The notes under the pieces were generated by a model that was not told the origin of the DNA, did not search any database, and was given only the letters and a program-made list of their open reading frames with translations. A stretch of DNA of 64,000 nucleotides from assembly GCA_051294375.1 (NCBI GenBank), contig JBJCIZ010000239.1, positions 2,245,476-2,309,475 on the forward strand. Direction: 5' to 3'. This document shows, one piece after another, positions 2,117 to 63,128 of this stretch. The translations under genes and the position numbers were made by a program. This stretch comes from Paraspadella gotoi. Lineage: Eukaryota > Animalia > Chaetognatha. Each line of letters starts with the position of its first letter. Position 1 is the stretch's first letter.

Positions 2117-2451
2117 TATGCGTGGACTAAAATCCACCAACCGTTCATCAGCGGCCATTGGTTGCCGGAGGCAAGTCATTCGCCTCCCAACCCAAAGGTC
2201 CGGGGTTCTAGCCCGGTGGTTGTCTGGCAGTTAAGAGGGACGGGGCGCTTAACCCGCCTGTAACATGGGTGTGTACAGCCTGATCGAAGCTCAGGGACTG
2301 CTTATATTGAACGGGTTCTATCACTAACTCATATCACTAATTACGTGTCTCTTCATTGGTGAGCCCGACTCCGAACACAACAGCAACAACAACACTTTCA
2401 GGCGACATGCCTCACCTGGCGATGCACTTTTCCGCCCACAACACATCAGGC
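2117..2451 (+). mobile_element. TRIM family A, 3'-truncated (LTR 2117-2355, PBS, partial internal region)
   Basis: LTR tatg..tctcttca, then t-TGGTGAGCCCGAC PBS at 2357-2369; homologous to 39531-39860. Confidence 0.85.
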
Positions 2452-3644
2452 ATACTCTCTCTTTTTGAGAAAAATTTTCAACAAAGATTTAAAAAAAGGA
2501 TAGAGGTCGAGGTAAAGACAAGTTAGGTTTAGGCCAGAGATAGAGAGATAGATATTGAAAAAAAAAACAGTTTCACTGTTTAAAGAAAAATCGTTGCTTG
2601 AACTACTTCAAACTCTTTCTAATTCAAAAACGCGACCAATAAATGATAATTTTGTTATTGCTGGATTAAAGGTTTTTTTTAAGGAAAAAAAAAGAAAATT
2701 ATAAATCTGATTAACTTTTTGATGCATGGATATTGTTTCTCTTCTCCTTCACCTGGAAAAACTTAAAAATAGGGTATTCCCTCTAAAGATTTACATAAAA
2801 CTTTATGAAAAAAGGGTCTAACTTCCGGCTATAGTTTTTGAGCAAAAAAATGGTATGCCAGTAATAAAATTATTGATAAAAAAATTAAAATAGTAAAAGG
2901 TATTAAAAATTAAAACCAGGAATTGTTAAAATTAGCAAAGTCTCATTAATAGAATGATTGAAATGAAATTTTGAATATTTACAGCCAAAGTTAAAAGTCC
3001 TTTGGCTATTAAAAAACGAATCTTTTTAAGATGCAATAATTGATAAATATGATTGGATTTTTTTATGATATGGATGATAATCCTTTGTGATAAAGTATAA
3101 AGTATAACAGTATAAAGCCATTAGCAGTCAGAATAGATCAAACACTTTTAATAATACATACTTAATTGATTATCGAGCACTATTTCCGGTTAGGGACACG
3201 CCCACTATTGATGAAAACCCTTTTTTGAACTTTTTTGTCTAAATACTACTTATTAAATAATTATACTAATTGCAAGATAAGTAAAAAACAACTGCCTAAC
3301 TTTTCATTTGTAGTAAAAAGAAAAATTCCATATTGTAGTCCACGCCAACTTCCGGAAAATTGTGCGTAGGTCTAATGCAAAATCTGATTGACGACACCTT
3401 GTTAGTCGTTTTAAGTACTTAAAATTATACTAGAAACTTTACAGGATTGTGAAAAATTTCGACTGCATGGTTAAAAAAAAAGAGTGTAGCGTTTAGTCTC
3501 TCTTTAATCTGACCGTCCTGTCCTATCTTCTTTCCATCCATCGTGTTTCTTCCGTCTACCCTTATCGGGGCTGCAAACCGTTGTCTCATTATCCCAGTAT
3601 GGGCGGCGTGGCAAAATTGACTTGACCAAATAACCGTTTTATAG

Positions 3645-4710
3645 TATGTTGGACTAAAATCCACCAACCGAACACAACAGAACACAACGCAACACTTTCA
3701 GGCGACAGGCCTCAACCTGGCGAGGGCACTTTCCGCCAACAACACATCAGGCGACATGCCTCAACTTGGTGACGCACTTTCCACCAACAACAATTCACTG
3801 AAGAGACGCAACAGACTTCTCCCTACAGGAGGGGGGGATGTATGGTGGACTAAAATCCCCCAACCGTTCATAAGCAGTAAGGCGTAGTAAAATTTTTCTA
3901 AATTTAACTTTAATTAAAATTCTAAAAGTGAGGAAACGAACAACATTATATTAATGAACATTTATGTAATAAAAAATTTATACATAAATTTTACAATTTA
4001 CGCAGGTAGGCCATATATTTATACTAGTACTAAACCAATAAATTTTAAAATTTCAAAACAGTTTTTTTGTAAGTTTTTTTTTGCAGATTTGGATTCGTCA
4101 TAAAAGTTGATAAATAGAAATATAACCTCTTTTTGAAAAATTCCTTCATTAAGTGGGTCAAAAATGAGAAAAAGCTATATTTTAAGCTGAAAAATTAACT
4201 TTTTTCCACATTAAATATAGTTTTTTTAATTTTTAACCCACTTAATGAAAGAATTTTTAAAAATGAAGTTATATTTTCTTTTGTCAACTTTTTTTACGAG
4301 GAATTCCAAATCTGCAATCAAAATTAAGAAAAGCCTATTCTTGAAATATTTCGATTTTATAAGGTTAGTACTATATATAAATATAGCCTACTTGCGAAAA
4401 TTAAAAAAAATAAAATTATTTTTTTTACAAATAATGTTCACTGATGGTATGTTGTTCATAATTGACTTTTAGAATTTTCGTATGTAACTTTCACTACGCC
4501 TTAATAAGCAGCTGTTTCGCGTGCCGGAGGTAAGTCATTCGCCTCCAACCAAAGGTCCGGGGTTCTAGCCCGGTGGCCGCCTAGCAGTTTAAGAGGACGG
4601 GGCGCTTAACCGCCTGTAACATGGTGTTACAAGCCTGATCCGAAGCATCACGGGACTGCTTATTATTGAACGTTCTGTCACTAACATACAAAATAATTAC
4701 TGTCTCTTCA
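3645..4710 (+). mobile_element. TRIM family A with most of the 5' LTR and the PBS deleted, and a MITE inserted in the 3' LTR
   Basis: TSD ATAG at 3641-3644 and 4711-4714; PPT ggagggggggga-tg precedes the 3' LTR at 3841; ends tctcttca. Confidence 0.85.
3878..4503. mobile_element. hAT-like MITE (626 bp, internally palindromic)
   Basis: TIR taaggcgtagt/actacgcctta; 8-bp TSD ATAAGCAG at 3870-3877 and 4504-4511; long internal inverted repeats. Confidence 0.85.
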
Positions 4711-5842: not shown

Positions 5843-5915
5843 GCTATGTAATTATCTTGTAAGAGTGATGGAGGCCTTAAACCACAAGCCTGTCCAAAGT
5901 CAGGGGCAAGATAGC
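5843..5915 (+). ncRNA. P5-type twister ribozyme motif, family C
   Basis: gctat..gagt GA tgg aggcct T|AA acc ac aa g cctg TCCAAAGT cagg..atagc; T1 cca/tgg, T2 ac/gt, P4 cctg/cagg, P5 gctat/atagc; 2-nt deletion relative to the copy at 61615-61687. Confidence 0.7.
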
Positions 5916-10873: not shown

Positions 10874-10874
10874 A

Positions 10875-21633: not shown

Positions 21634-21700
<67 letters not shown>

Positions 21701-24700: not shown

Positions 24701-24790
24701 ATTATAGTTTTTCTGATTTTGACCAACTTAATAACATAATGTTGATATAAAATTTTATTTTCTTATATCAACTTATTGCAAAGAATGCAA
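15561..24790 (+). repeat. Error-rich direct duplicate of ~2468-10530 (includes copies of the TRIM-A/MITE, the minisatellite and the integrase fragment)
   Basis: Colinear identity with many single-base insertions in 15.5-20.6 kb and several N gaps; likely an uncollapsed haplotype or a gap-fill read. Confidence 0.9.
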
Positions 24791-28750: not shown

Positions 28751-29468
28751 ACTTACCTAGAATTTTTTAACAACCAGATTGAAAAACAAATCTTTAAGAA
28801 ATGTGTTTACCAATTTAACTTAACAATTTTGTTATTTCTCGATTTAAAAAAAATGATTGAAAACAGAATGTTTAGTAAACATTGCTTACATATAAATAAA
28901 AACTTATTTTTTTGTGATTACTGATGACTATAATGTATTTCTCGATATATTAGCTCTAATACATCAATGATTACGTATTGTTATGCTGAATGACCTTTCC
29001 TCTTGAGAGACTCGAGTGGCTCGTCCACTGTAACCAAGATGGAGGTGACGACGTTCACCGAGTTTGAGTTTGTCTTCCGCTGGGTGAGGCAAATCTGTTG
29101 ACGCGGTGCTTGCCTCTGCTGAAGGGGGGTTTGATCTTCCGATGACCGAGGCGAGTTTTGTATTTATCTCGAAAATCATTTGGAAAAGTTTTTCTATTTG
29201 CATTTAGGTAGACGTTGCAGATGTCGAGGCGGCGGCGTCGTGGAACGCGTCGTCTCGGCCGGCCACAGTAGACAGGAAGCACAAAAAGAAACATAGGGCA
29301 AAACAAATGAAAGTGTAGCGGTATATTCACACCGCTTCACGTCAATCATCGTTCAGACTATCCCATTCGTTTTTAATTGTTTGAATTTTAAGGTACTGAA
29401 GAGGCTGGTTTTACAGGGCGCCACACCCGCAGCGGTGTCACCTCGTGGCGACAGCGAGACAGCATGTT

Positions 29469-29547
29469 CATGTAGTCCAGAGCTTTGGATCTGGCAGTAG
29501 GCCCATGCCTACAGGCGGGTTACCCGGTCCATCTCACTTTCTACATG
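29469..29547 (-). ncRNA. P5-type twister ribozyme motif in the TRIM-B 3' LTR
   Basis: catgtag aaa gtga GA tgg accggg T|AA ccc gcc [tgtagg catggg cctact] g ccaga TCCAAAGC tctgg a ctacatg. Confidence 0.75.
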
Positions 29548-29550
29548 ACA

Positions 29551-29614
29551 ACCTCAGGGCTCGAACCAGGGACGCACATTGGGATGGTGCATTAGTCCAC
29601 TGAGCCATTGAGGC
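29551..29614 (-). promoter_or_regulatory. tRNA-derived Pol III cassette in the TRIM-B 3' LTR
   Basis: gcctcaa TGGCTCAGTGG..gcacc atcccaa tgtgc..GGTTCGAGCCC tgaggt: A box, B box and acceptor-like stem. Confidence 0.8.
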
Positions 29615-30582
29615 GCTGCGAAAGAAACAGCTTTAATCCATCTGTGGTGATAGGACTACCAGACAGCCGCCCCCAGGACTCTCACATATGAGAGTATGAA
29701 GTAGGGGATGAAGCACATGTCAATCTGCTGAACCTCTCTTCATTCTGGTGGCCTTGCTTTGAGTGGCAGCTGTGTAGCTCAAACCACATCAAGGGCAGAG
29801 GACTATTATCATGCCCGGTTTGCATGTTCGGATCACGTCGGGCTCACCATTGAAGAGGCTGGTTTTACAGGGCGCCACACCCGCAGCGGTGTCACCTCGT
29901 GTTACCCGGTCCATCCCACTTTCTACATGACAACCTCAGGGCTTGAACCAGGGACGCACATTGGGATGGTGCATTAGTCCACTGAGGCGCTGCGAAAGAA
30001 ACAGCTTTAATCCATCTGTGGTGATAGGACCACCAGAGTACAATTTTTAAATTCTCGCACTAGCAAAGTATCTATAGACAGAGTAACTCTGGAGACTGGC
30101 TATTCTGATCGAAAAAGTTAAAAGCACTCATGTTATCATAACAGTTATGAATAATGAAACTAAATTTACAAATTTTTACTTTAAAGATATGATTTTCAGC
30201 TTATAAATAGTTTTCCGTTGCAAAACGTATTATTTTTTTAAATCTTAAAAATACTTAGATATCATAAATTTTTCACATTTAAACTAAAGATAATCAAAGC
30301 CAAAAAAGCGGCTGTCGATCCATCGACATGAGACAAAAGGCGACGTCGATAAGGATTTCCATGAGTCTTTTCTCGGCTCGAGTCTCCAACGCGTCCAGTG
30401 CCGTCGCGTGAAGCAAGACGCGGTCGTCGAGGAGGCAGCAACGAACAGTGCTGGCGCGGAGGGGGGCATGGAAGAGGCCGTATTTGTTGACGAGAGCGAT
30501 AGCTGGGGGGAAAATAAAAGGGAGGAGAGACGCGGAACGACGAGAGAAAATAAATATCCGCCTGTTAACTTAACAATACTAT

Positions 30583-31222: not shown

Positions 31223-31448
31223 TATGGTGGACTAAAATCCACCAACAGTTCATCAGCGGCAATTGGTGGCGGAGGCAAGTCATTCACCTCCCAACCCAAA
31301 GGTCTGGGGTTTTAGCCCGGTGGTCGTTAAGAGGGATGGGGCGCTTAACTCGCCTGTAACACGGTGTTACAGCCTGATCCGAAGCTCAGGGACTGCTTAT
31401 ATTGAACGGTTCTGTCACATTAACATAACAATTATCACTGTCTCTTCA
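31223..31448 (+). mobile_element. TRIM-A solo LTR
   Basis: tatggtgg..tctcttca with TSD AATT on both sides; 8-bp deletion in the P5 5' arm. Confidence 0.9.
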
Positions 31449-31574: not shown

Positions 31575-32221
31575 TGAAGAGACCGTAATTATTGATATGT
31601 GTTAATGACAGAACCGTTCAATATAAGCAGTCCCTGAGCTCCGGATCAGGCTGTAACACCGAGTTACAGGCGGGTTAAGCGCCCCGTCCCTCTTAACTGC
31701 CAGGCGACCACCGGGCTAGAACCCCGGACCTTTGGGTTGGGAGGCGAATGACTTGCCTGCTGATGAATGGTTGGTGGATTTTAGTTCACCATACATCCCC
31801 ATAAGGAGAAGCTGTTGGCGTCTCTTCAGTGATATTGGTTGTTGTTGGTTAGATAAGTGCGTCGTCACCAAGTATTGAGGCCATGTCGCCTGATGTGTGA
31901 TGGATGCAAGAAGGTGGCATTGGGCCAGTTGAGGCTGTTCGCCCCTGAAGTGTTGTTGTTGCTGTTGTGTTCGGAAGTCGGGCTCACCAATGAAGAGACG
32001 TTAATTATTGATATGTGTATATACAGAACCATTCAATATAAGCAGTCCCTGAGCTTCGGATCAGGCTGTAACACCGAGTTACAGGCGGTAGTAAGCGTCC
32101 GTCCCTCTTAACTGCAGGCGACCCGGGCTAGAACCCCAGACCTTTGGGTTGGGGAGCGAATGATTGCCTCCGCACCAATGGCGCTGTGATGAATGACGGT
32201 TGGTGGATTTTAGCCACCATA
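31575..32221 (-). mobile_element. Full-length TRIM family A (LTR-internal-LTR)
   Basis: TSD AGAT at 31571-31574 and 32222-32225; PBS gtcgggctcacca (plus strand) at 31977-31989; two LTRs. Confidence 0.9.
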
Positions 32222-39120: not shown

Positions 39121-39563
39121 ATATTTACGTGTTTGATATTACAAGTAAGGTCCCGAAAATAGTAGAAAACAGTCAATTTGCCGATGACACAGCAAACTGG
39201 GTCACAAAAGTGTCTTTAGAGTTGTATCAATTTGAAATGAAAAGGACAATGGACGCCATCCAAAGGTGTTGTAGTAAATGGCGACTTAAGCTGGCCCCGG
39301 AAAAATGTCAGTTGATTATCTTTTCGAGAAAATGAAGAGCGCTATTTGGAAAACTTGACTTAGAATTATTTGGGGAAAAAATTGGGGTCGTACGGGAAGC
39401 AATATTTTTTGGGAGTTACTTTTGACAGTAAATTAAATTGGAACATCCACATAGATAACCTCTCTAAACAAATGATACAAAGATGTGGTGTCTTATCCAA
39501 ATTACGCTACAAATATAAATATTTATGTAGTATGGTGGACTAAAATCCACCAACCGTTCATCA

Positions 39564-39635
39564 GCGGCCATTGGTGCCGGAGGCAAGTCATTCGCATCCC
39601 AACCCAAAAGTCCGGGGTTCTAGCCCGGTGGTCGC
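39564..39635 (+). promoter_or_regulatory. tRNA-Gly-like Pol III cassette in the TRIM-A LTR
   Basis: 72 nt; acceptor stem gcggcca/tggtcgc, A-box-like TGGTGCCGGAGG, B-box-like GGTTCTAGCCC, loop (c/a)tcccaa; the anticodon stem is broken, so this is not a functional tRNA. Confidence 0.75.
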
Positions 39636-40059
39636 CTAGCAGTTAAGAGGGACGGGGCGCTTAACCCACCTGTAACACGGTGTTACAGCCTGGTCAGAAG
39701 CTCAGGGACTGCTTATATTGAACGGTTCTGTCACTAACACATAACAATTATTACTGTCTCTTCATTGGTGAGCCCGACTTCCGAACACAACAGCAACAAC
39801 AACACTTTCAGGCGACATATCTCAACCTGGCGATTCACTTTCCGCCCACAACACATCAGGTGACATGCCTCAACTTGGTGACGAACTTTCTACCAACAAC
39901 AACAATTCACTGAAGAGACGCAACAGACTTCTCCCTACGGGAGGGGGGATGTATGGTGGACTAAAATCCACCAACCGTTCATCAGCGGCCATTGGTGCCA
40001 GAGGCAAGTCATTCGCCGCCCAACCCAAAGGTCCAGGGTTCTAGCCCGGTGATCGCCTC

Positions 40060-40134
40060 GCAATGAAGAGGGACGGGGCGCTTAACCCGCCTGTTACACG
40101 GTGTTACAGCCTGATCCGAAGCTCAGGGACTGCT
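40060..40134 (+). ncRNA. P5-type twister motif in the TRIM-A 3' LTR
   Basis: gagg GA cgg ggcgct T|AA ccc gcc [P3] g cctga TCCGAAGC tcagg; predicted cut 40083/40084. Confidence 0.75.
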
Positions 40135-41219
40135 TATATTGAACGGTTTTGTCACTAACACAACAATAATTATAATATCGTCACGCATAAAACGGGGTAA
40201 ATCTTTTCTCAATCGAGTAAACAAAAATATTTCGGAATGTTCTTTACAGTTTTTTTTAAATTTTAGATTTTTTTTTTCAGAATTTCTTTTTCTATATTTT
40301 TTTCCTTTAATTTTTTTTTAAAAGAATTAATTCCTAATTACTAAGGTAGGGATTAGCAGTATTCGACGAAATTTTTATTTTTCTATCGGCCGAAAAATAA
40401 TAGGGAATTTGATTCCAAAAAACAAGGCTTTTTGAAATATTTACTGTATGGAAAATACTAAAAAGAAAAATTTTCTTTTTTAAATCTAGGTACTGTAAGG
40501 GTAAGTCTAACTAAAAACCGAAAAATAATTTTTTAAATAATAAAAATATTGGAATAGTACAGAAAGCATTTTTTCTTTTTATTGTTGCGCAAAAACTAGG
40601 CTTTCCTCGCAAAACCTCTGGTTACAGGAGATGCAAATGGATTTTCTCTCAACAAATTGGTCATTCTTGATTCCCAAAAATGATGCGCAAAAATGCGCCA
40701 GCAGCAGTTCTGGCGATAGTCATTTTATATCATCTTCCTATTGTATATTAAGGCCTATGAATCATCAATACATATGAAACTGATATAATATATTATTATG
40801 ATCTTAAGATTTATTATGCCTTTTTCTGCTTACAAAAATTCCTCCTTTGCAAAATATACTTGATACTATAATTATTATAATGGGTAATATCTTTATTTAT
40901 AGTCTTTTTTAACTAAGTTCAAATATAAACCTAAAGAGCCATTGTTTATCCACAATTTCTGATACTTTTAATAAAATTGATCCACTGACTTTTTACGTGG
41001 TGTATCTTTGTTTCTTTTTATCTATGATTTGAGATTTATTTTCGGTATTCGTTTTTTCTTTGATTTTAAAGAATCAAAACCGAAAATAATCGACTTAGAA
41101 TCGGAGATTGTATAAAAATAAAAGAAAAAAGAAAAGGGAGGAAAGGGAAAGAGATAAAGTGACGCAGTTTTACGTCAATTTACGCCATTCTACGCCAAAG
41201 CATCTTAACTTAATAGTTT

Positions 41220-43207: not shown

Positions 43208-43439
43208 TGAAAGGTCTTTTCATCCTCTTGAATTCGCCGTATGCGAACAAAAAATTTGATCAGGGAAAATTAATAAAACGAAGAAAAGATAACTTAATTC
43301 GCAAATTCCAACGCGGTAAACGTTAAAACTATTCCTTTTCGGTTTTACCCTGTTTTATGCGTGATGTAATATTATATTAAATATAATAATCTCTTCAGTA
43401 GTAATATTATGTAGATATGTCGCTCCGNNNNNNNNNNCG

Positions 43440-46400
43440 ATCGAATCCTACATCCCCCCCAGACGAGGAAACGGAAGGAGACGAGGAAACTGTTTCTTCA
43501 CGGTTGGGCTCCACTTCGTTGTTTTGGTGGAGGATGTGCCGCAAGACCGCGCTATAATCTGGTCGTGTCGCGGCGTTGGCGCCTGGACGACAACAGGCAT
43601 CCGAAGGTTTCACTCTTGGGAATGGACGAAGGCCAGAACGGCGGCGTTGTCGGGGCGTTGGCGTTTCGCAACTGGGCGTCGACGGACCTGGGGACCGGGG
43701 AGACGTTTCTGCATGTCCGGTTGTAATAGGAGGCATTGACGCTGGAGTGGGTGCGGCCGGAACTGATTCGTTTTGCTCTTCGCCGCTGTTTTCTGTTGTT
43801 TCGACGCGAATTGGCGCCGGCAAAGGGCGGCGACGACCTCGGCGATTTCTCGATTCAACATGGCGAGGCGACGGAGGCGGAAGCGGCGGCGCCTGCGGTC
43901 CGGGAGGTTCCTCGTCTTCCAATGAGTCGTCGCAGACATTGGCGGGTTTTATTCGGGAAATAGCGACGGTCTCAATGCCTCTGCCGGGGATGTCGATTTT
44001 AAAGTTTAGATTGTCTCGCGCTGTGACACGGAAGGGGCCTTCGTAAGGGGCGGTGAGAGGCGGGTTAATGCCACCGCGCCGGATGAAGACATGTGTGGAC
44101 GTGGCTAGACTCTCTGGGAGATGTACCCGAGGTATTCGATGACTGCTGGTTGGCGCCGGTTGAAGGCGCTCTACTTCAAGGCGGAGCTCGTCTCTAAGGC
44201 GTTGGCGAGCTGCTCGTTCCTCCTCTGCAGATTGGCTCGGGCCAAGGACGTCGCCAGGCACCGTGAGGGCGTCTCCATAGACTAATTGTGCTGGGGAGGC
44301 GCCCACGTCTGGCTTAATGGTGGTGCGGATGGCTAGAAGCGCTGAGGGAAGTCGCCAGTACCAACCATTGGGATTGTCCGTGGCAATTGCGATGAGCGAC
44401 TCCTTCAGTCGGCGATGGAACCGCTCGACCAGTCCGTTGGCTTCTGGATGATAGGCTGCCGTCAAATGGAGTTGACAATCCCACGTTTTGGCGAGCTGTC
44501 TCCAGATCGTTGACGAAAATTGGGAGCCACGGTCCGTCGTGATTTCTGCAGGGATGCCGAATGTCGCGACCCAGTGATGTGCAAAGGCATCGGCGACAGT
44601 GGCCGCCGTAATGTCCTTAATCGGGACTGCCATTGGCCATCTTGTAAACCTGTCAACGGCAGTGAGAAGGTAGGTGAAGCCATTTGACGAAGGCATTTTG
44701 ACCAGGTCCACATTTACATGCTGGAAGCGGCGCGGTGGAACGCTGAATTCGCCGATTTCTGGGATAATGTGGCGCGTCACCTTGGCGCGTTGACAGGCGA
44801 CGCACTCACGCGCCCATCGCGTCACATCTGCACGCATCGATGGCCAAACAAATTTCTCGGCCACGGCGTCTCGCGTTCGCGCGACGCCCGGGTGGCCGAG
44901 TTCGTGGATCGTCTTGAAGACTTTGCGGCGCCATGCCTCCGGAACAAAGGGTCTTGGCGGGCCGTTGGAGAGATCCACTACGATGGATTCGTTGCCGAGT
45001 TGAATTCGACGGAAGTGTAGTCCCGTTGCTGGATCCTGTAAGAGCCGACAAAAATCTCGGTCTAGGGGCTGTTGGCGTGCCATTTCACGAAGGTCGATGC
45101 CTTGGTGCTGCACAGCAGATGCGACAAGGGCAAAATGCTCCGACTTCTCTGCGCTCAGGGGCTTGCTAGAAATGTCGGAGCCCTGATTCGGGCGTGATAG
45201 GGCATCGGCCACGACGTTGGCCTTTCCTTCGACGTGGCGGATGTCCGTCGTATATTCGGCGATGGCCGAGAGCTGGAATGTGTGACGGGCTGTTTGGGGT
45301 TCCGTCTTTTTGTGGAGCGCGTGAATCAAACTCATATGGTCGGTATACAAAACGAAAGCGCGCCCTTCCAGCCAGGGGCGGAAATGCCTGACAGCCCTAA
45401 AGGCGCCGTACAACTCCCTGTCAAAGGGCGGCCACTTCCGTTGGGCGTCGCTCAACTTGGCAGAGAAAAAGGCTAGCGGTTCCCAGCCTTGCGGTCCTCG
45501 CTGCTCCAGCACTGCTCCTACAGCATGGTCGGATGCGTCAGTAGTCAATGAGAGTGAGGCGCCGGTTTTTGGATGACGAAGGAGGACGGCATTCGCCAAG
45601 GCCTCTTTGACGGCGTCGAATCCTTGTTGGCACTCTGATGACCAATCGAGGCGGCGCGGTTTGCCTTTGAGGGCATCATAGAGTGGCGTCGCGTGGTGCG
45701 CTACTCTTGGAATGAATCTTCTGTAGTAGTTGACCATTCCAAGGAAACGCTGCAGTTCCTTGACGGTCGTTGGTGCTGTGGTTTGCCGCAGGGCGTCAAC
45801 CCGCTGGGGAAGTGGCTTCACGCCACTCGCGTCGACATGGTAGCCAAGAAACTCCAGTGACTCTTGGCCGAGAATGCATTTTTTCCGGTTGATCACCAGA
45901 CCATTCTCTTGCAGAGCCTCGAAGACCTCCTCCAGATCCTTTGAGTGCTGCTCGTCATCCTCGCTTGCCACAAGGATGTCGTCCAGATAGACATAAACCC
46001 GTGGTAAACCGCCGAGTATCTCATCCATCAACCGCTGAAAGTCTTGGCCAGCGTTTTTTAACCCAAAGGGTGTCCTTAGAAAAACGTACAGGCCAAACGG
46101 TGTGATAACCGCCGTCTTGGGGACGTCCTCGGTTGCCACCGGGATCTGGTGGTAACCTTTGAGTAGGTCAATCTTCGAGAAAACGTTCTTTCCATTCAGC
46201 TGGGCGTTGAAATCCGCCAGTAATTTCACCGGGTATCGGTCCGGGATCGTCTGAGCGTTTAACTGACGATAATCGCCGCAAACACGCCATCCTCCGTCTC
46301 CCTTGGGGACACAGTGCAGGGGCGATGACCATGGGCTCTTGGCCCGAACAGCGACTCCAAGCTCCACCATTTTGTCCAGTTCTGCCTTCGCGACCGCTAA

Positions 46401-47000
46401 TTTCTCTGGTGAAAGGCGACGTGCGCGTGCCTGACACGGGCGACCTTGCGTCGTAATATAATGGCGGATCCCATGCTTGGGTTCTTTTATTTCAAAGGTC
46501 GGCGTACACAAGGCAGGATAGCGGTCTAGCAATTTATAAAACTGATTGTCCTGACCTGCGAAATGGACATGGGAGGCGGTTTGGCCATATGCTCGGGCGC
46601 AAGCGATCGTCGAATAGTCTTTGAGATCAAGAAGCAAACCATCTCGGTGGTTGGGGGCGAGGAAGTATTGGGCGAGAAAGTCGGCGCCTAAAATACTTTG
46701 CGTCACGTCTGCTACTAGAACCTCGAAAGGGAAACGTCTGGGACCGAGAGTAATATTTTTGGTAACAGTTCCAAAACAAGCAATGGGTGTACCATTTGCG
46801 GCTTGCAGTTGCGGGCCGGAAGTGCCCGCGGCGCGTTGTTCAGGCGTGGGCGGAATTAATGAAAGCATCGCGCCTCCATCTATCAGCCACGCCCTTCCAT
46901 CGCTGGCGTCAACAACGTGGAGGAGATACGAATCTTGTGGTGAATGGTTGTCTTGGCGGGGAATGGCGTTCACCTGCGCCTTCCCGCCTGGCCGTTTCCC
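43440..47000 (-). CDS. pol: Pol polyprotein (protease, RT, RNase H, integrase with GPY/F), probably expressed by -1 frameshift
   Basis: LIDGGA..ILGADFL, RVCGDYRQLN, YLDD, TDASD, ADALSR, H-x4-H..C-x2-C, DRGSQF, PYEGPF; the ORF runs through the PPT into the LTR and the N gap. Confidence 0.95.
46955..47000 (-). promoter_or_regulatory. -1 ribosomal frameshift signal
   Basis: G GGA AAC in gag phase (47000-46994), 5-nt spacer, then hairpin ggcgggaaggcg-caggtgaa-cgccattccccgcc; a -1 shift enters the pol frame (RPGGKAQVNAIP). Confidence 0.85.
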
Positions 47001-48106
47001 GGCTTGGTGGCGCGCTTTTCACCGTAACGCGCGCAGCCTCTTTCACAGCGATAGGCTGCGTCTCCAAATTTCAGGTGAAATTGACAAACTTGCTTCAATC
47101 GAGAAGAGGTGGCGTTCTCGGGTTTTCCAGTTTGCGCGCCAGTGGCGCCGGGGGCGTGGTTTGGCCGAGCGGAAAAGGTGGGGCGTTCACGGCGTCGATT
47201 CACCGCATTGACCTCAGGGTGCTGCTCCTCCTCGCTGGAGAAGGAAAATTCGTCGTCGTGCGTGATGAGGTTGATTGATGAGGCGGCGCTCTTGTAGAGT
47301 GGCTTCCCGGCCGCGTCGAAGTGTTTGTCGGCTATGGCGGCCAGTTCCGCTGCCGTTGATGCTTCGGCGCGGTCCATGACATTCGCTTTGATCGACGACG
47401 GAAGACCTCTGATGACCAGCTCCTTTCGGATATCGTCGATCGTCACCGTCGACGATTTTTCCACAAGGCGGGCCAGGTGTTGTGACGGGCGCATGTCATC
47501 ACGGGCGATTTGGGCGTCGAGGAGCATCTCGGCCTGACGACGCTTCGTGAGACCGTATTCAGTGCGCAAGTAATCGATAAAAGCCGTCCACCTTGGCTCC
47601 GATGGCTCTCCGTACAGAAAGGCGTTGATACGTGGGTCGACGTCGACAGAAATTTTCGCCTCCAAAAAGGCGAATTTGTCCTTTGCTGTGATGACTTTTG
47701 CTCGCGTATACGCGGCTTCTATCCTTCTAATCCATATTTCGATGTTGTTGCGGTCGAAAGGCGGCAGGTCCGGTTTCTTAGGTTTCTCCGATCGGGCGAG
47801 CGCCTCCTGCGCGGCGCGCGTAGCGGCCATGGCGGCGTCTAGTGCCGCGCGAAGTGCTTCGACTTCAGTCTGTGTTGGCGGGGCCTCTGCCATATCCGCG
47901 GCGTCCGCGAAGGCTTCCGGATTGATCGGAGGAAAAACAAACACCGTTGGAGTCTCTGGGGCTCCTTGACCAACCGCTGGGGGAGCTGCGACCTCTTCGT
48001 CGGCGATGCCGGGCGAGGGAGAGAGACGACCGCGACCGAGTGAGGGTGGGGCGCGGAGAACGGCTGCTTGGGACCTCGTGGTGACGCTCGGAATTGGAGG
48101 CGGCAT
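46970..48106 (-). CDS. gag: Gag (378 aa) with CHCC nucleocapsid motif
   Basis: KPDLPPFDRNNIEIWIRRIEA.., CQFHLKFGDAAYRCERGC. Confidence 0.9.
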   Translation of the reverse strand: MPPPIPSVTTRSQAAVLRAPPSLGRGRLSPSPGIADEEVAAPPAVGQGAPETPTVFVFPPINPEAFADAADMAEAPPTQTEVEALRAALDAAMAATRAAQEALARSEKPKKPDLPPFDRNNIEIWIRRIEAAYTRAKVITAKDKFAFLEAKISVDVDPRINAFLYGEPSEPRWTAFIDYLRTEYGLTKRRQAEMLLDAQIARDDMRPSQHLARLVEKSSTVTIDDIRKELVIRGLPSSIKANVMDRAEASTAAELAAIADKHFDAAGKPLYKSAASSINLITHDDEFSFSSEEEQHPEVNAVNRRRERPTFSARPNHAPGATGAQTGKPENATSSRLKQVCQFHLKFGDAAYRCERGCARYGEKRATKPGNGQAGRRR

Positions 48107-50571
48107 CTATTGAGTTGCGCGGGCGTCTTGGCGTTGATCTGACTCGTAGAAGGTTGGTGGGAGTCTCGAGTGATGCTCGAGAGTCTTGAAAAGTTCGAAG
48201 TTGGGGTCACCAATGTGGCGAGCGTTTGCTAATCGCCACGCGTGTCTCTGCAGTTTCTGCTCAGGGTTCTTCGAGATAATAGACCAGAGATGTGCCAGAA
48301 AGCGCAAAGGTGTTGGTATGTGGCTGTGTTCGAATAGATAGAGCAGGAAGCGAGCGCAACGCGGTATATGAGAGAGAGAGAGCAACACATGATAGCGATT
48401 TCAGGATATTAAAGAGAACATCTGATATGCCCCTAAACAACGAAGAGCGAGATGAAGCATAAATAACAGTTAATCACTATAAGCGTAAGCCAATCGGGCG
48501 GGGGGGGGACGAGAGGTAGACACCTGAATGACGGGGATCGGGGGGGCGGGCGGGGCGGGGCGAGGGGGGGGGGCGGGTGAATGACAATGAAGATTTAACG
48601 GTGTAAGAATTCCTTAGTGAGACAGGAAAGGGATAATAAGTCATAACAATAGAAACTATAAAATTACTACTAGTGATGGATCTAGTAAAATGGAATGCTT
48701 ATGATGTTTTATTGTTCTAACATGATTATACTATCATGTTATAATAATTAGCGTAATTTGAATATCTAATTTAAGCTATTGAGATGGAGAGAATACATTA
48801 AGCACTGGTCGTGACTGATAAGTCCGGGATCAAATCCAGAGATGATTATTTTATTTTGACATTAATAAATGTGTTTATAAATAGACTTAGTGTAGTATGT
48901 TAAAAACGGATCATTTTAAAATTTAATGCGGATTCGCCGAGACTCTCAGCTGAGCAGAGGACGAAGATAATTAACTTAATCTTAGCGTGGTATCCTGCTA
49001 AGCTAATCTTGAATTTAAAAAATTAGGGGCCGAATTGCCGAATTAAGATAAAGAGCCGGTTGCGACGAAAGGAGGCCGAAGAGAGAGTCCAACGGAGTCA
49101 AATTTTTTTTTAAAGATGCAGATTGTTGTGTGTTTTTTGTTCCGAGGGAAAATGACGCTGCGAAGAGACCCCGTTCGGTGCATGCCTTTGGCAAAGAAGT
49201 TTGCGTGAACATATGGTACAGTCTATGATGCGGGAAGTCTAAAAAAAACAGACCACAACAAGTTGATCGTATGACTAATTTAAAGTTTAAGTCTATTTTT
49301 TTGTTGGAAGGAGGAAGGAAAAGATTAATTAATTCCCGGGCGGACGAAGGATTATAGAAAGGGTAGAGGGCTGATAAGAGAAATAGCGGGATGGGGCTAT
49401 CATAGCTTTGGCCGATAATTAGATTTTAGAGTTTCCCATACGATGGGATTTCGAAAGAATATTTAATGTCGATTCAAAAAAAAACAAAACAGAAAACTAA
49501 AGATGAGATAATTAGTAAATGTTTTGGAATATTCAATATTGAATATTGAGACGCTTCTAAATACCAAGTAATATCGTTTTGAAATAGTGAATAACAAAAG
49601 CAAAGAAGGATGAAGCCTGACGTAAAAGGTTCGAATGATATTTGGGGATTACGACGGTGATTTTATTTTATAAGATATGCACAGTAACGAAGTCGAAGTT
49701 TGCATTCAGGTCGAGCGACGAAAACCCTCGAATGGATCGGAGAGCAAAGGATCCGCACGCAAACGATTGGCCTCTCGTGACTCGTCTGCTCGCGCTTGGC
49801 GACTCATTCTCTCTCCTCAAAAGAAGATAGAAAAAAAAACTCGAAGCCGCCCCGCCCGCCCCCATCATCAGCGCGAATCGCACTCCTTCGCGCGCACGTG
49901 AGCTCTGGCGTATCCGCGGTGCGACTCGAGGTTTCTCCCCCATCCGCGTGCACGGTACTTTCTTCGTCGCATGCACGTGACTTTCTGCGCCCGTTGCGGC
50001 GGTCGCAAGGCCTCGGCGACGAGAATCGTTACTCTCGCGTGATACCCGCCCTAATCCGGATCACTCCAGCGTTTCTCTCTCTTCGTCTCTCGTCGCTGCT
50101 CTCTCTCTCTCGCTCTCTCTGCTTCCTCCACCTGCCGTGTCACCCGTGCCCTCTCTCTGCTCCTCGTTGCTTGCGTCCGTCCTGCGCCGTCCTCTCTCTC
50201 TCCCTCTCTCCTTCCCTCTCTTTTCACCCTCTCCCCCCCTCGATTGCACAGTGACAGCGAGATAACGTTCGTGTTTCTTTCATCTTTGTAATTATTTCTC
50301 GAATCACGGCCAGACTTTTTTTTATCATTACCGGCATAGAATCTCATTAGCAAAAAAAAAAGAAAACAGGCACAACTGATAGAATCAAAACTCGAAAAAT
50401 TGAATCATAAAAAAAAAATCCTTTATCCTAAAGAATATATCGATGTATTGAATTGTTTTTTTGTTTAACCGTATTTTATTTTTTTGTATTTATACTACGA
50501 TAATCATGATTTCCCTAGCTTGGTCCTTTCCTCTGTGTACACTGTACAGCCCACGTGTAAAATTAGCTGTT

Positions 50572-53011: not shown

Positions 53012-55702
53012 CTCTCCCCTTCCTTACAAAAATAAAAACCATATTGTATAATAAGTCAATTCCATTTCAAACAATCGATATTTTTCATATTGTTAGCCCT
53101 TTTTCTTTCGCTCACCGCCGCCGCTTGGTCGGGCTCTCTTTTCGCGATGACGTCAGAATCGATGAAAAACGACTTGGATTTGACGGACGTCGTTTTCTTC
53201 GAGTAAGAGGCTAATGGCCGCATGGTGACCTTTAAGGACAGAAAAGTTCCATAACTTTATCAATCTATACAGTTGGTACAAACAATATGAAAATTATCTA
53301 TTCGTTAAGGTTATTTTGCTTTCTGACTTTAGACTAGCGATGGTAGTTTAAGACTTCTATCCCTCTTGCTAGGTTTTTTAATTATATTAAAATCAGGCAA
53401 AGCTTTCAATCAAGAGACTATTTTACAATTTAGTTTTTTAACCCCCATTTACGGTTTTTATCATTATTATCATTAATGAGAACAATTTCCGGTACATATC
53501 CGTGTCCATTGGACAACTCGCCTTAGATGACGTCGTAGACTTCGGCGGCGACACTCTGGCTCCGAGAATTTCCAAAACGTTATCGTCGTCGTCGTCTTCT
53601 TCTCTTTTAACGATAACAACGTCGTCGCCCAGCAACTGTTCGGATTTTACAGGGATCGCCGCCGCCTCCTCGACTTTCACTTCCATCGCTTCTTTCTCCG
53701 CTTTCGCCTTTAAAAACTTCTTCGTGGTCGAAGCGCACCGAACCGTCTTCTTGTGCTTAGCGTAGTAAGTCGGATTGCGAAAACTAATTCCGCAAGGTTC
53801 GCACGCGTAATCGGCGGATTTGTGCGAATAAGTCGCGTGCGTCTGGAGATGTTTGCCCACGTTGAAGCGTCTGGAGCATATCTCGCACTTCATCTGCAGC
53901 CAGGGAAAGGTGGTGTAGAAAAGTCCGCCGTGGTTGTCTATGAGGTGGTCGCGAAGTTGCTCCGCGCTTGGAAATTGAACCCGGCAGAGATAGCACTCTG
54001 GCTGCTCGTCGAACAAGGGCGTCATGCAGTGCTTGGTCATCATGTGCTCGATCGCTTCCAATTCGCTCGTCAATTTACAGCTGCAGACGATACAAACGAG
54101 GAGAGTGCAGGAAGAGTCGCTCAGAGAGGTTCGAGAGAGGGTGTTGGTGAGGTGCGGGTGAGCAGCGGCGCAGGCGCGGGCGTGAGGGTAAAACTGCTGC
54201 TGCTCCTTGAAGTTTTCATCGCAGGTGGGGCACGCCTATGGAAAGTTTGGAATAAATGAACAGGCGACTCAAATCATTACGACGACGACAAATATAATTA
54301 ATATTAATATTGAAGAGACAGTAATTATTGATATGTGTTAATGACAGAACCGTTCAATATAAGCAGTCCCTGAGCTTCGGATCAGGCTGTAACACCGTGT
54401 TACAGGCGGGTTAAGCGCCCCATCCCTCTTAACTGCTAGGCAGCCACCGGTCTAGAAACCCGGACCTTTGGGTTGGGAGGCGAATGACTTGCCTCCGGCA
54501 CCAATGGCCGCTGATGAACGGTTGGTGGATTTTAATCCACCATAATATGTATTTATATTATAAATAAGTAAATAATTAAATTATAATAAGTAAATTTTGG
54601 GGTTTTTGAATAAACCTTTGAAAAAAAAATAAACATCGAAAAGTTTATAAATATTAGTTAATAAATTTTAAAATATTAAACAAACGGAAACAATTAATAA
54701 ACTACGAAAATGACTTCAAACCTTAAGCAAAACGACTCCCGCGCATCTATGAACCGACTCCATGTGTCTCAACAGAATGTTCTCCGAACTGTAGATCATT
54801 TCGCAGATCGGGCAAGAGAATTGAATCTGGGACCCCACTCGTCCGCCGCTCGTAGTGGGCGTGGCGGGCGGCGCCGGCGAGGCACGACGAGAACGATAGG
54901 ACTTGGCGGCGACGAGCGGCTTCACCTCGAACCGTTCCTGCCGCTTCTGGGAATAGGTCAGGCCTTTGAGTTTAAGCCGATGGGCCATGCGATGGGCGGA
55001 GGACGCCGCAGCCTCGGCGGCGTAGGCGGCGGCCACGGCGGCGAAACTCTCCTCGGCGGCGGCGGCGGACTTTGGGGAGGCGGGTTCGATGAGGACCATG
55101 TCGTTGTCGGACTTTTTCGATGTCGGCCGAGAGTCGGTGTCGGCAGAGCGATTCTTTTTCTTTCTCTTTACCGACGATATACTTTTTTCCAGAACCGGAG
55201 ATTCAGAGCGGAGTTTGGACTTGACCGACGCCTTGCCCGACGCCTTGCCCGAAGCCTTGCCCGACGTCTTTCCCGATGCGATGCCCGACGCCTTGCGCGA
55301 TGTCTTCGCCTCCTCCGACGTCTTGCCCGTCACGGGCGCCGACACTTTTGAAGAATCTTTGGCCGATGCCTGGCTCGACACCGCCTTGCCCGACGACTTG
55401 GCCGACGCTTTGGTCAGATTTTTGGAGCGAACCATTTCTGGGCGTGCCCTCTGCACAATGAGGTGACTCTGGGTTCGAAAAACTCTCCATCCCGATTTAC
55501 GACGCGGTTTTAACGTCGACGTAACTCGAGCAAAGATGTCGTCGAGGGAATCGGCGATGCCGCCGCCGCCGTCGACCACGAGATGCTTCCCCGTGGAGTG
55601 GATCGTCCACTGGCTCCGCGGACACAGCTCCGCCTTGACTTCGTCCGTTACCGACTTCAGGTCCGGGTCTTCGGTCGAGGACGACGAAGAGATGGCGCTC
55701 AT
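52492..55702 (-). CDS. C2H2 zinc-finger protein; predicted exons 55702-54722, 54235-53522, 53229-53116, 52851-52492 (722 aa)
   Basis: Fingers CPICEMIYSSENILLRHMESVH, CYLCRVQFPSAEQLRDHLIDNH, CEICSRRFNVGKHLQTHATYSH, CPICSKRLSYSMYLKYHLVKEH; all junctions phase 0; an acceptor at 55721-55720 implies an upstream exon, so the start is uncertain. Confidence 0.85.
54311..54544 (-). mobile_element. TRIM-A solo LTR (234 bp) in a zinc-finger gene intron
   Basis: TSD ATAT at 54307-54310 and 54545-54548; termini TATGG..TCTTCA. Confidence 0.92.
54362..54437 (-). ncRNA. P5-type twister motif, best-preserved family A copy
   Basis: agcagt taa gagg GA tgg ggcgct T|AA ccc gcc tgtaacacggtgttaca g cctga TCCGAAGC tcagg g actgct; predicted cut between 54413 and 54412. 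Confidence 0.78.
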
Positions 55703-57012
55703 GGCGAGAGGGAGTGGCGCTGCGAAAGGTTGAAACGAGAAACAAAACGTTTTGAAAATAAATATTCCCATTTCGAAAAGAATTTTCAGCATTTCAAATT
55801 AGAATAAACTTAATTACCTTTTTAAGTAAAGTTTTGAACCTTGGCGCCAATGAAAACTATATGAGGATCGATAATTAAAATGGAAAAAGCGAAGGGGCCA
55901 GTGAACAATTAGATAACGATAACTTAGCTGACGCCAGGCTGCATTTGCTGAGTAATCATTTGGCGCTGCACATCTTTGACAGTTTATGAAACAAAAGGAC
56001 AAGACTAGTAATATTGAATTTTCCAAGAAATTAATTTATTTTAAACTATCAGAGGTCAAAACAGCGTTTTATCGCGTAAATATTTTTTAAAATGAAAATA
56101 TAATTAAAGATGCGTCGCCAAGAATAATTTAAATAGGTAAAAATATTTTGACGATGCCATTTTTTCTCGGTGCTGGGCATGAATCCGGTGCCTTTTGTTT
56201 ACGTATTTCATGATTAACGTTTTTTTTTCGTTGTTTTTGTGATCGGTAGGTGTCGCTACGAGTAGCATAACGGAGCTTGTTGGGAAGGATTAGACAAATG
56301 ACAATCCATTTTTTTTCTTTTCTCTTTTCACCGAATTTAAATTTCAGTTGTGAAAAATACATAACAGTGATAACTAATTATATTACCAAGTTAATTCGGT
56401 TCCTAATTTGTTTGTTGAAAATTGTAAACAAACGAGTTTTCTTCTGCTTTTGTTGATTATTTTTAATCGTCGCAGTTTTTATCAGAATGTACGGGTAGCT
56501 AGATAGATCATATAGGATTATAGGTGCATTAACAGAAACACGAAAACATATTCTCAAATTCAAAATAAATCACACAAAAATCAAATCCGTATGTTTTCGT
56601 TCATTAAAGATACGTTTAAAATTCGTTACAGAATTATCAAAAAATACATAATTTAATTTTACCAAGTCGATTTTAATCTAAAAAAATTGCAGAAAAAAAA
56701 ACAAGAGAAAATACAAAGAAGAGAAAAGAAAGGAAAGTGATCGAAGAGTAAAAAAGAAAATACAAAAGGAGAGAAAAGAAGAAGAGAAAGAAGATGATGA
56801 GATTGAGAGAAAAAGAGTTGAAGACGGATTCGATGAGAAGAAGAATGGAAGAAGATGTAAGAAGGAGAAAGAAGAAGAAATGGAAGGAGAAAGAAGAAGA
56901 AAGAGGACGAGGAGCATTTTCCTTAGATCCCCGTTTAAATCCCTGACTAGATTAAGGGGGTTTTACACCGCTTCCCTTTCCTGTGGCTTAATTCGCATAG
57001 AATCTTATTTGC

Positions 57013-60690: not shown

Positions 60691-63128
60691 GAGACAATAG
60701 ACAATAGACAATATTAAGAGAGAGAGAGACAGAGAGACAGAGAAACAGAGAAACAGAGAAAGAGAGACAGAGAAACAGAGAAACAGAGAGAGAGAGACAG
60801 AGAGACAGAAATCCTCTAAAGATGAGGTTAAGCTTTTTAAAAAAAGCCGTCGTCCCTCCATCCGTAAATCTTCTCTCTAACTCTCAGCTCATCTCATCTT
60901 CTCTCTCTCATTTCCCCCCCCCTCTCCCCTACCCCCTCCTCCTCCAAAAGGTCGTTCCCCATCCCCCACCCACCTCCCCTCCCACTCGCCCGGATCCCTC
61001 AGTCCGGCCACGCCCACTTCCGGTCGAAGCGTCAACGTCTCTCGTCGTTCGCCGTCGCGTCCGCCGTCGCCGCCGCAGACGCGTCCGTCGTTTCACTCGA
61101 CGCCGCTGCCGCTGCCGCTGCTGCCGCCGGCGCCGCGGCGATCGCCGTCCCGCTCTCGATCGCCGCTGCGGACTTCGTCGTCGTCGCCGCCGGAGCAGCG
61201 TCTCGTCCAACCGCGCCCGCGTTACGGCGCCGTAGACGTGAAAGGGATGACGCCGCTTCCGCCGACGACGCCGCCTATGAAGACGCCGATGCGTGCGTCG
61301 CCTACGAGGATCGACGGCGCCGGTTTGGCGAACGGAGCAGGGAGGGCGCCGTTGTCGCCGGTGAGGAGGGAGAAGTCGTTGTTGTTGTCGTTGTCGTCGT
61401 CGTTCCGTGTTTATATCCGCTGTTGTTGTTGTTGTCATTGTCGACTTTTTTTTTCTGTCGTTGTAATCTTCAATGTCATTGTTGCTTTAAACTCTCTTAG
61501 GACTTCGCTGCTTTTGTTCGACCTTATTATTAATATTAAAGAAATAATAATAAAAATAGTAATAATGAAATTGGTACAATCAATATAAAAAATATCCATT
61601 CAGTTAATAAATAAGCTATCTCGCCCCTGACTTTGGGACAGGCTTTGGTGGTTTAAGGCCTCCATCACTCTTAAATAATGACATAACAGGTCCCCGCAAG
61701 CTTTCAATCAATATTACTAATACAACAACATTACAATATTACTACTAATAATATTACTAATGTTAATAAGAATCCTTTTTCCTCCCTTTCAGCCTCTACT
61801 CCCTCCACAACTTCTCCCCGCCTCCCTTCGTTCCTCCGCTCCCTGCTTCTTCCCCTCTCTCCCTCCCTGCTTTCCCTCTTCCCTCCCTTCCTCCCTTTTA
61901 TCCGATCCCGCTTTGGCGTCCTACTTGGCCGCAGCGGCGGCGGCCGCCGCCGCCTCGGCCGCCGCGACTAACCCCACCGGCGCCGCTCACTCTAGTCTGA
62001 GTCCCGGCGGCGTCGAATTGGCGGAAAGGACGCCGCAGACGATGTCGCCGGCTTCTCTGCATTCCGCGGCCTTCGCGCAATTACATTTGCTCGGCTCGAA
62101 TCTTACGCAGGGTAATTCGTGGGAAAAAATATCTTCAATCTAATTTGCATATTGTCGTTTTTTTGGTTTTTTTTGATTATGCATTGATAAAGTTTCGTTA
62201 TGATATTTTACAAGTTTTTTTTTCGTTTTTTTCCTGCATTTATTGGTCATATTTAATTATGATTGGATCTCGAGAGGATGATTGCGTTTGTTAATACAAA
62301 CAACTCGTTTATAATCTATAACATTCGTTCTTGGCATGAAATTTTGACTTCATTCTAATTCATTCGTTTGAATGTTTCGTCCGAATTAGACGAGTTGAGT
62401 CCTTTTGAATTTCAATGGTAAGATAATACCAACGTTGATACGCTATGTTGTCAGTTATTTCTATAATTAATATTATATGATAATGATTCCTTCTTTTTCT
62501 CTCTCTTCTCACTTATCACTTATCTCTTCTCACTTATCACTTATCTCTTCTCACTTAGGTTCTCATTCGCTCCCGGGATTCTCACCCCACCATCTCCCTT
62601 CCATTCCCACTCAACCGGTTCCACTCAAAATTTCCCCGTCGATCAAGTGAGTGGAAAAAACACGTGACCCAGTCACGGTGACACTTAACCATAATTTCTA
62701 TAACTAATTTAAACTAAAAGAAAATAAAAGCATTGTAATGATATTGATATAGATATGAGTTACGTCATTTTTTTTTTACAATGAATATTGACCATGATTA
62801 TTTTTATTTGATATTTATGAATGATTATTGACTTGATGGGAGAAAACTTTACGTTTAAAATGAATTTTATTCATTCATAAAAGTAATATTATTAAGAGGA
62901 CATAAGATTGAATTATGACCCCGGCCCTCGCTCTTTTCAGCCCCGCCCCACATTTGCCGCATCCTACTCCTCTCCTACCGCCCTTCGCCAGCCCGGGCCT
63001 CGGCCCTCACGGCCTCACCGGGCCGCATCCGCCGCCGCCTCCTCCGCCCCACGGGCCGCTTCCGGGGTCCATCTACCCCTGGATACTGGCCCGGCACGGT
63101 CGCCTGCCCACCGGTTTTCGATTACCGG
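60500..63128 (+). CDS. ems: empty spiracles/Emx homeobox transcription factor, 5' part; exons 60500-60587, 60951-61360, 61793-62111, 62559-62646, 62941-63128; homeodomain exon(s) not found in the window
   Basis: N-terminal eh1-like KMAFSIDAIVG and IYPWILARHGR..FRLPG motif typical of ems/Emx just before the homeodomain; all splice sites GT-AG with phase-compatible junctions (1,0,1,2,1). Confidence 0.85.
60626..60810. repeat. (GAAA)n and GA/GACA-rich microsatellites in ems intron 1
   Basis: Directly visible. Confidence 0.9.
61615..61687 (-). ncRNA. P5-type twister motif, family C, antisense in ems intron 2
   Basis: gttat..gagt GA tgg aggcct T|AA acc acc aaa g cctg tcCCAAAGT cagg..atagc; one extra C in L4 relative to 5843-5915. 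Confidence 0.7.

Follow-up and report, generated by a model that had tools for sequence, protein, structure and literature searches.

Twister-type folds with a near-palindromic six-base linker in place of P1 in TRIM LTRs of the chaetognath Paraspadella gotoi

A 64,000-nucleotide stretch of the Paraspadella gotoi genome, hereafter the window, was AT-rich eukaryotic DNA in which microsatellites, noisy duplicated blocks and runs of N occurred. It contained several copies of a fold resembling the twister ribozyme, in which six bases with a self-complementary centre stood where the P1 hairpin was expected. The question raised by this locus was whether these bases served to pair one ribozyme copy with another and, if so, whether cleavage depended on such a dimer. 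The copy examined most closely had the following parts (the slash in U/A and U/AA marks the cleavage site).

54362..54437, minus strand: type-P5-like twister fold (P5, bulged 3-bp P2, T1, T2, P3, P4/L4), inside a family-A solo LTR
54437-54431 with 54368-54362, minus strand: P5
54424-54423, minus strand: GA motif
54422-54420, minus strand: T1' (TGG)
54414..54419, minus strand: linker GGCGCT in place of P1 (G-U closing pair and GCGC palindrome)
54412..54413, minus strand: predicted U/A cleavage site, placed from the twister consensus
54410-54408, minus strand: P2
54407-54406, minus strand: T2
54405-54387, minus strand: P3
54386-54369, minus strand: P4/L4

Along the minus strand, positions 54362-54437 ran in the order P5 strand, AAG, P2', GA, T1', six bases, UAA, P2, T2, P3, P4 with the L4 core, and P5 strand, which was the element order of the type-P5 twister permutation. 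The U/AA cleavage motif and the GA general-base motif were invariant in all ten aligned cores. Moreover, the general base G, U/AA and the L4 core were retained in four families, namely A, B and C of the window and a metagenomic locus, L088, described below. In these families P4 had 4-6 bp and P5 had 6-9 bp, with the L4 core present and the termini in P5. An intramolecular P1 stem was absent, since a linker of six nucleotides allowed at most one pair within the strand. Additionally, all four families shared a P2 whose 5' strand had three nucleotides with one bulged base opposite, the canonical four-base-pair P2 being absent; this feature had not been mentioned in the sequence-only reading that preceded our analysis.

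The count of six bases rested on a T1 of three Watson-Crick pairs. It was correct because the twister crystal structures give T1 exactly three such pairs (as described in the sections of PMC5408937 cited here), and family C had the identical register in the Rfam Twister-P5 alignment, with a P1 loop length of zero. A fourth T1 pair, which would shorten the linker to five nucleotides, was ruled out by the engagement of the L4 uridine in a trans U-A pair in the same sections, and was also contradicted by a C at the corresponding linker position in L088. Both T1 (3 bp) and T2 (2 bp) showed changes on both sides, with 96.7% and 95% of cells paired, respectively. The substitutions in the ten aligned cores were CG/UA/UG at the fourth position of T1, GC/AU in T2 and GC/UA in P2. 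The covarying helices were T1, T2, P2 and P4. Rfam at its gathering threshold gave no matches in the window. Against RF02684, family C scored 28.0 bits and L088 scored 24.2 bits, both below the gathering value of 37.6, and families A and B gave no match. The motif was a twister by its anatomy, yet it stood outside formal membership of RF02684. We considered it very probable that the fold belonged to a real twister lineage.

The linkers between T1' and U/AA were GGCGCT in family A, ACCGGG in family B and AGGCCT in family C, each exactly six nucleotides long. In family A, GGCGCT followed by TAA was exact in 8 of the 10 window copies; the copy at about 17870, within a noisy duplicated block, kept GCGC amid indels, and the copy at 32109 was damaged. 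Several of the family-A copies were assembly duplicates of a single locus and were not independent. Both family-B copies had ACCGGG (the one in the 5' LTR lacked the 3' half of the ribozyme), and AGGCCT was found in two of three family-C copies, the third being garbled. A descriptor in which the linker was free to vary from 3 to 30 nt recovered from the window six motifs that were structurally valid, each having a six-nucleotide linker with a palindromic core, and gave no matches in 100 shuffled windows. The family-B copy was excluded by this filter through a single P2 mismatch. Thus, the claim of the sequence-only reading that exactly six bases with a self-complementary centre were present in all three families was borne out in the window. 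A palindromic core is expected by chance in about 1/16 of cases, and the cube of this value would overstate the case because the three window families were chosen post hoc and families A and B were clearly related, so that the three were not independent draws.

The elements that carried these ribozymes, together with a Gypsy-type element in the same window, were as follows.

2117..4710, plus strand: family-A TRIM split by nested insertions (PBS 2357, PPT 3831)
5852..5914, plus strand: family-C twister (linker AGGCCT at 5872-5877, T2 changed to AC/GU; Twister-P5 score of 28.0 bits)
29397..30037, minus strand: family-B TRIM with TSD GTAC, PBS at 29849 and an LTR holding box A and box B at consensus
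about 29468-29548, minus strand: family-B twister (linker ACCGGG at 29528-29523)
31223..31448, plus strand: family-A solo LTR with TSD AATT (linker 31340-31345)
31575..32221, minus strand: family-A TRIM with TSD ATCT (ribozyme of the 3' LTR complete in its helices, linker 31683-31678; that of the 5' LTR damaged)
39531..40172, plus strand: family-A TRIM (5' LTR 39531-39764, PBS from 39766, PPT before 39950)
39952 to 40172, plus strand: 3' LTR of the preceding TRIM, truncated at its 3' end
43407..48212, minus strand: Gypsy-type LTR retrotransposon (gag-like ORF; RT, RNase H and integrase) with a tRNA-Trp PBS at 48212
54311..54544, minus strand: family-A solo LTR of 234 bp, starting TATGG and ending CTTCA, with TSD ATAT (equivalent ends backed by contig run-off)
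54449..54503, minus strand: degenerate tRNA-like head of this LTR, with a loose box A and an altered box B (GGTTC in the 39531 copy)
61616..61682, minus strand: second family-C copy (linker 61661-61656)

Elements of families A and B measured about 640-650 bp and consisted of an LTR, a tRNA-Trp PBS, a short non-coding middle, a PPT and a second LTR, flanked by 4-bp TSDs (ATCT, GTAC, ATAT and AATT). They were Helenus-like TRIMs, a group whose features include a length below 1000 bp and a tRNA-derived box A (TRGCY..YGG) and box B (GGTTC) in the LTR. Both boxes were at consensus in family B; in family A this held for box B of the 39531 copy, and box A was loose. Neither ARAGORN nor Rfam called a tRNA in the tRNA-like head. 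The PBS of both families closely matched a tRNA-Trp PBS in the part of the PMC10886601 supplement compared and that of the window Gypsy element at 48212. The PPT/LTR junction of the Gypsy element also resembled that of family A. An element of this Gypsy type was therefore the likely helper of the TRIMs, given its matching primer type and similar PPT junction.

Family A was present in high copy number, as 19,996 contig pieces of one sequencing run aligned to the element, and contigs ran off into unlike flanks at 39531 (110 contigs) and at 39764 (243 contigs). In a run recorded as RNA, coverage was confined to 68 nt of the LTR end. A depth peak on the 52-nt core was rejected as a signal because it reflected a centre-of-stretch effect. 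Part of the TRIM at 2117..4710 recurred as a duplicate at 10556-10874 and again at 17737-18078. The window held four two-LTR elements, and in none of them were both ribozyme copies clean. In the TRIM at 39531..40172, the linkers lay at 39656-39661 and 40077-40082, the two cleavage sites were predicted to be 421 nt from each other, and T2 and L4 of the 5' ribozyme copy carried substitutions. The two family-C copies had about 130 bp in common and a common 3' end. A PBS, a PPT, a clear TSD and tRNA boxes were looked for in the window copies of family C and none were found, and 29 short ORFs nearby had no Pfam domain. Thus, the LTR setting proposed for all three families, and with it the argument from two LTRs, was supported for A and B only. 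The copy at 54311-54544 was itself a solo LTR with TSD ATAT.

Covariation within the linker bore on the first part of our question. Linker pairs 1-6, 2-5 and 3-4 each showed changes on both sides and 96.7% of cells were paired in the ten aligned cores; as these were related copies, this percentage, like those of the other helices, should not be read as a probability. Within one strand, pairs 2-5 and 3-4 were impossible because they would close loops of 2 nt and 0 nt. Since these covarying inner pairs cannot form in a single strand, selection for pairing between copies was likely, and on this sequence evidence we considered it probable that the linker palindrome was maintained for pairing between two ribozyme copies.

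The public collections were scanned with patterns that did not require a palindrome. In a metagenome scan with a free linker of 4-12 nt, one of 45 loci, L088, passed the helix filter. Its linker, CAATTG, had six bases, was a perfect palindrome and was unlike those of families A-C in composition; the locus had the bulged P2 of the window families but a P4 and a P5 of its own. Chance matches in the same scan had linker lengths scattered between 4 and 12 nt, and a palindromic core occurred in none of their 18 distinct hexamers. The L088 contig of 1,097 bases had a 123-nt exact terminal repeat and was a circle or tandem unit of 974 nt. Such a context also places ribozyme copies as neighbours. Six ORFs in L088 gave no Pfam match, a search for a PBS, tRNA boxes and a hammerhead core found none, and its folding stability was unremarkable (z -1.52). 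Five further scans, likewise free of the palindrome requirement, found relatives at none of 91 loci (0/20, 0/14, 0/14 and 0/4 in viral collections and 0/39 in prokaryote genomes), and the out-of-sample support consisted of one case, L088. A viral scan with a canonical P2 (62 loci) raised two candidates, both rejected as relatives: L082 was a P5 twister of the usual kind, its P1 being a long hairpin; L054 was a phage tandem of two type-P1 units. The six-nucleotide junction of L054, GAACGT, was not palindromic and was a counter-case to the palindromic linkers, although it joined type-P1 units with a 4-bp P2.

Our main reading was a strand-swapped double twister, in which a dimer would enhance cleavage within a retrozyme-like cycle; we gave this model a probability of roughly 55%. 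Pol III would start transcription at the tRNA-like head in the 5' LTR, and the transcript would span both ribozyme copies. In a fully nested fold, each copy would pair its 5' half with the 3' half of the other, and the two linkers would build one common P1 of 4-6 bp in the canonical register, activating both cleavage sites. Double cleavage would then release a unit of about 421 nt without terminal redundancy. Circularisation was suggested because the redundancy so removed is required for normal strand transfer, and in plant retrozymes circularisation has been proposed to overcome the same loss (in the parts of PMC4918200 cited). By analogy with these elements, a host ligase might circularise the unit and a Gypsy RT might prime on the circle with tRNA-Trp. 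A circle of this kind would carry a single ribozyme copy and would recut itself slowly, so that dimer gating would protect it. In our view, such protection would account for dimer gating better than the silencing of solo LTRs does. The solo LTRs, besides being numerous, carried a putative promoter themselves and could likewise pair in trans.

Folding energies were compared for this model. In the swapped dimer P1 contributed 3.7-9.4 kcal/mol, and by this gain the native linkers ranked 11-181 among the 4096 possible hexamers. For 39531-40172 the ensemble energies were -191.5 kcal/mol for the swapped fold with P1, -186.5 for two monomers and -182.8 for the swapped fold without P1; that is, the swapped fold was about 5 kcal/mol better than two monomers and about 4 worse if P1 was forbidden. 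Under looser constraints the swapped fold had no advantage (-196.0 vs -197.2), and both catalytic folds lay 25-30 kcal/mol above the unconstrained ensemble, with pseudoknots unscored. Thus, these calculations lent weak support to the swapped fold. Unconstrained cofolding was not counted as evidence because dimers are favoured for any hairpin-rich RNA. The predicted 421-nt circle was not unusually stable (z -1.36). Taken with the linker covariation, the CAATTG of L088 and a hammerhead precedent (PMC7229834, as far as its cited sections go), the gain of about 5 kcal/mol indicated that the palindrome probably did serve pairing between copies, as the sequence-only reading had proposed.

That reading had gone further and made cleavage strictly dependent on the dimer, leaving solo LTRs largely silent. 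This part was unsupported and we regarded it as doubtful, since the cited sections of PMC5408937 report that twisters without P1 cleave at a near wild-type rate and those of PMC11662667 that a large screen of type-P1 twisters saw no loss of cleavage from P1 defects. These results left the case unsettled because the constructs were open at P1 and did not have a tight six-base tether. Monomer activity of a twister with a six-nucleotide linker was plausible, and a monomer closed by one base pair and a tetraloop was sterically plausible. In the axolotl hammerhead with one pair and a palindromic tetraloop, the monomer cleaved to 6% and the dimer much more (the relevant part of PMC7229834). We expected accordingly that the dimer enhances cleavage and is not absolutely required. 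Among the published Helenus sequences inspected, two tRNA-Trp-primed wasp LTRs seemed by eye to hold, at the corresponding place, a type-III hammerhead whose helices were complete. They supported a ribozyme function in such LTRs, and suggested that TRIMs may not need dimer gating.

Of the other explanations, the one closest to our reading was a monomer-active mini-twister, closed by one pair and a tetraloop, in which solo LTRs would cleave too and the palindrome would be minor or act in multimers only. It drew on the dispensability of P1 in known twisters (in the same sections of PMC5408937 and PMC11662667), on the 1-6 pair, which could close in three of the four linkers, and on the intact core of many solo LTR copies. 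However, it left unexplained why four different palindromic cores (GCGC, CCGG, GGCC and AATT) occurred and why the blind match L088 had one against 0 of 18 background hexamers, and we considered it rather unlikely. The opposite objection was that the fold was inactive, with P2 one pair short and P1 absent. The sub-threshold Rfam scores fit such a view, as does the review, in whose cited part damage to the active site is considered a possible result of altering the length of P2 (PMC5408937). Against this, the general base G, U/AA and the L4 core were kept in four families and T1 and T2 covaried, and P2 bulges and deletions were tolerated in the portion of the twister screen cited (PMC11662667), which made inactivity very improbable.

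The palindrome might alternatively have a role apart from cleavage. GC-rich loop palindromes of 4-6 nt serve as retroviral dimer-initiation sites. A kissing or dimerisation signal for co-packaging, template switching or LTR tethering would leave cleavage independent, and the idea of two packaged genomes in the sequence-only reading fits it. Yet the palindrome stood exactly in the P1 register beside the scissile bond in all four families, even in L088, which lacked a PBS and tRNA boxes, and the AATT version would kiss weakly; this explanation was improbable. Slightly less improbable was a legacy of descent, in which the ribozyme came from a tandem or circular replicon (a Penelope-like element, a satellite or an RNA circle) and its dimer design performs no gating in the TRIM. 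LTR hallmarks were missing around the variant both on the 974-nt circular or tandem contig and in family C, which was consistent with such an origin. It was opposed by the difference between the related TRIM families A and B (GCGC vs CCGG), which, provided that the ribozyme had been passed on along with the LTR, would imply compensatory change after the two had diverged.

The twister-type motif can be compared with known systems, in each case as far as the cited parts of the sources describe them. With the type-P5 twister (RF02684; PMC5408937) it shared the order of elements with P5 termini, the GA motif, U/AA, T1 and T2, and the L4 core, and it differed by the palindrome replacing the P1 hairpin, the 3-bp P2 with a bulge and the sub-threshold score. 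In the dimer-dependent, minimal type-I hammerheads known from amphibian retrozymes and from Penelope-like elements (PMC7229834, PMC6765202), the cleavage-side helix is likewise cut down to one pair and a palindromic tetraloop, and a repeated context supplies the partner copy. However, they are another ribozyme class, and the hammerhead core needs helix III, whereas the twister P1 is reported to be dispensable. The Perere-3/RTE twisters of Schistosoma (PMC8501958) likewise combine a twister of altered P1 with a retroelement; unlike ours, they are open at P1 and lie at the 5' end of non-LTR elements, and the sections of that paper considered make no mention of a dimer or palindrome. A 2020 review mentioned unpublished truncated twisters in RTE elements. 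No twister L4 match was found in the available portion of the Naiad/Chlamys supplement (PMC8557442), where other L4 variants could escape.

Plant LTR retrozymes (PMC4918200, PMC7761336) were alike in their non-coding LTR-PBS-internal-PPT-LTR structure, a ribozyme in each LTR, 4-bp TSDs, solo LTRs and a likely Gypsy helper, and this architecture (non-coding, 4-bp TSD, ribozyme per LTR) was found in families A and B. They differ in their type-III hammerhead and tRNA-Met primer, in place of which our elements had a twister, tRNA-Trp, a smaller unit of 421 nt and a tRNA-like Pol III head. Plant retrozymes form abundant unit-length circular RNA, and here such a circle is predicted. Rfam scans gave no hammerhead match in the window elements. 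According to a review of retrozymes among these sources, in its cited part, metazoan retrozymes lack an LTR, PBS and PPT. Helenus, or TRIMp3 (Kojima 2024, PMC10886601), resembled families A and B as a TRIM below 1 kb with 4-bp TSDs and a PBS shared with Gypsy, and Helenus-2_SyJa had the tRNA-Trp primer as well; its LTR carries tRNA-like boxes A and B, which family B had at consensus and family A more loosely. The supplement LTRs compared start with TG, unlike the integrated ends here (TA/TC...CA). The sections of that paper considered report no ribozyme, and no twister L4 match was found in the part of its supplement scanned. In the literature covered, which included few subscription journals, we found no palindromic-P1 or dimeric twister and no twister in LTRs. 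The palindromic-P1 twister in TRIM LTRs thus joins a known ribozyme, the twister, with the anatomy of retrozymes and Helenus TRIMs.

If correct, our reading would carry dimer-gated self-cleavage over from hammerheads to the twisters, for which P1 is thought to be unnecessary, and would provide a natural test of the role of P1 in the P5 permutation. As a variant missed by Rfam, the ribozyme may be common and uncounted. For engineering, a ribozyme of 65-80 nt that needs a partner with a matching six-nucleotide key would be a simple part. A bolder version, which we offered tentatively and thought possible rather than probable, would be a hitherto undescribed obligate-dimer twister class with a palindromic P1 and a bulged P2 across eukaryotic mobile elements. 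In Pol III TRIMs it would act as a two-LTR counter, cutting only full-length precursors and leaving the single-ribozyme circle stable, and these TRIMs would be the first LTR retrozymes that are neither from plants nor based on the hammerhead. For the elements themselves, the finding would suggest a way in which a fast ribozyme can reside in a circular RNA without destroying the circle, and Helenus Pol III TRIMs, plant LTR retrozymes and twister ribozymes would become connected.

The integrated 5' ends of family A, the TRIMs and solo LTRs in which the twister-type fold had the linker GGCGCT, began with TA immediately 3' of the target site duplication (positions 39531, 54544, 32221 and 31223), and that of the related family B (linker ACCGGG) began with TC at the same place (30037). 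In the 3' LTRs, a TG was located between the PPT and the TA or TC start (39950 in family A and 29665 in family B). This TG appeared to be lost upon integration, leaving TA/TC...CA ends. The family-A 5' LTR end at 39531 was also the start of 110 contigs.

Both families resembled Helenus, a TRIM group with a tRNA-like head in the LTR. In the PMC10886601 supplement, two tRNA-Trp-primed wasp LTRs, Helenus-2_SyJa-LTR and Helenus-2_SyUm-LTR, contained an apparent type-III hammerhead, read by eye, with CUGAUGAG and GAAA cores and complementary loops. This hammerhead-like motif lay directly 3' of the tRNA-like head, the slot taken by the twister in the window TRIMs; the accessible portion of the article text made no mention of it.

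Twisters were also present on other contigs. The metagenome contig L088 (1-1097) represented a circular or tandem 974-nt unit with a single short-P1 twister and an additional CAATTG besides the twister linker; the unit was not rod-like and had no Pfam match. In a phage contig, L054, a pair of type-P1 twisters lay directly head to tail, in tandem, at about 95-235.

The window contained further elements:

3916-4478, long terminal inverted repeat element (MITE-like)
24241-25113, long terminal inverted repeat element (MITE-like)
30643-30997, long terminal inverted repeat element (MITE-like)
25521-26677, (-), second RT/integrase element, fragmented

One family-A TRIM had one of these MITE-like elements inserted in its 3' LTR. 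A large block was found in two copies (2-10874 and 14273-24786) that were about 80-95% identical and differed by numerous indels. This was probably an assembly duplicate, either uncollapsed or noisy.

The solo LTR at 54311-54544 (-) was flanked on either side by ORFs on the same strand:

53438-54235, (-), C2H2 zinc-finger ORF
54716-55798, (-), C2H2 zinc-finger ORF

The solo-LTR ribozyme might therefore be included, in sense orientation, in a read-through host transcript.

Within the TRIMs, the family-A LTR 3' end (39756-39764) was complementary to a motif immediately upstream of the PPT (39911-39919), and family B had a similar complementarity between the same two regions. The predicted stem would close the internal domain, and both LTR ribozymes would come close together.
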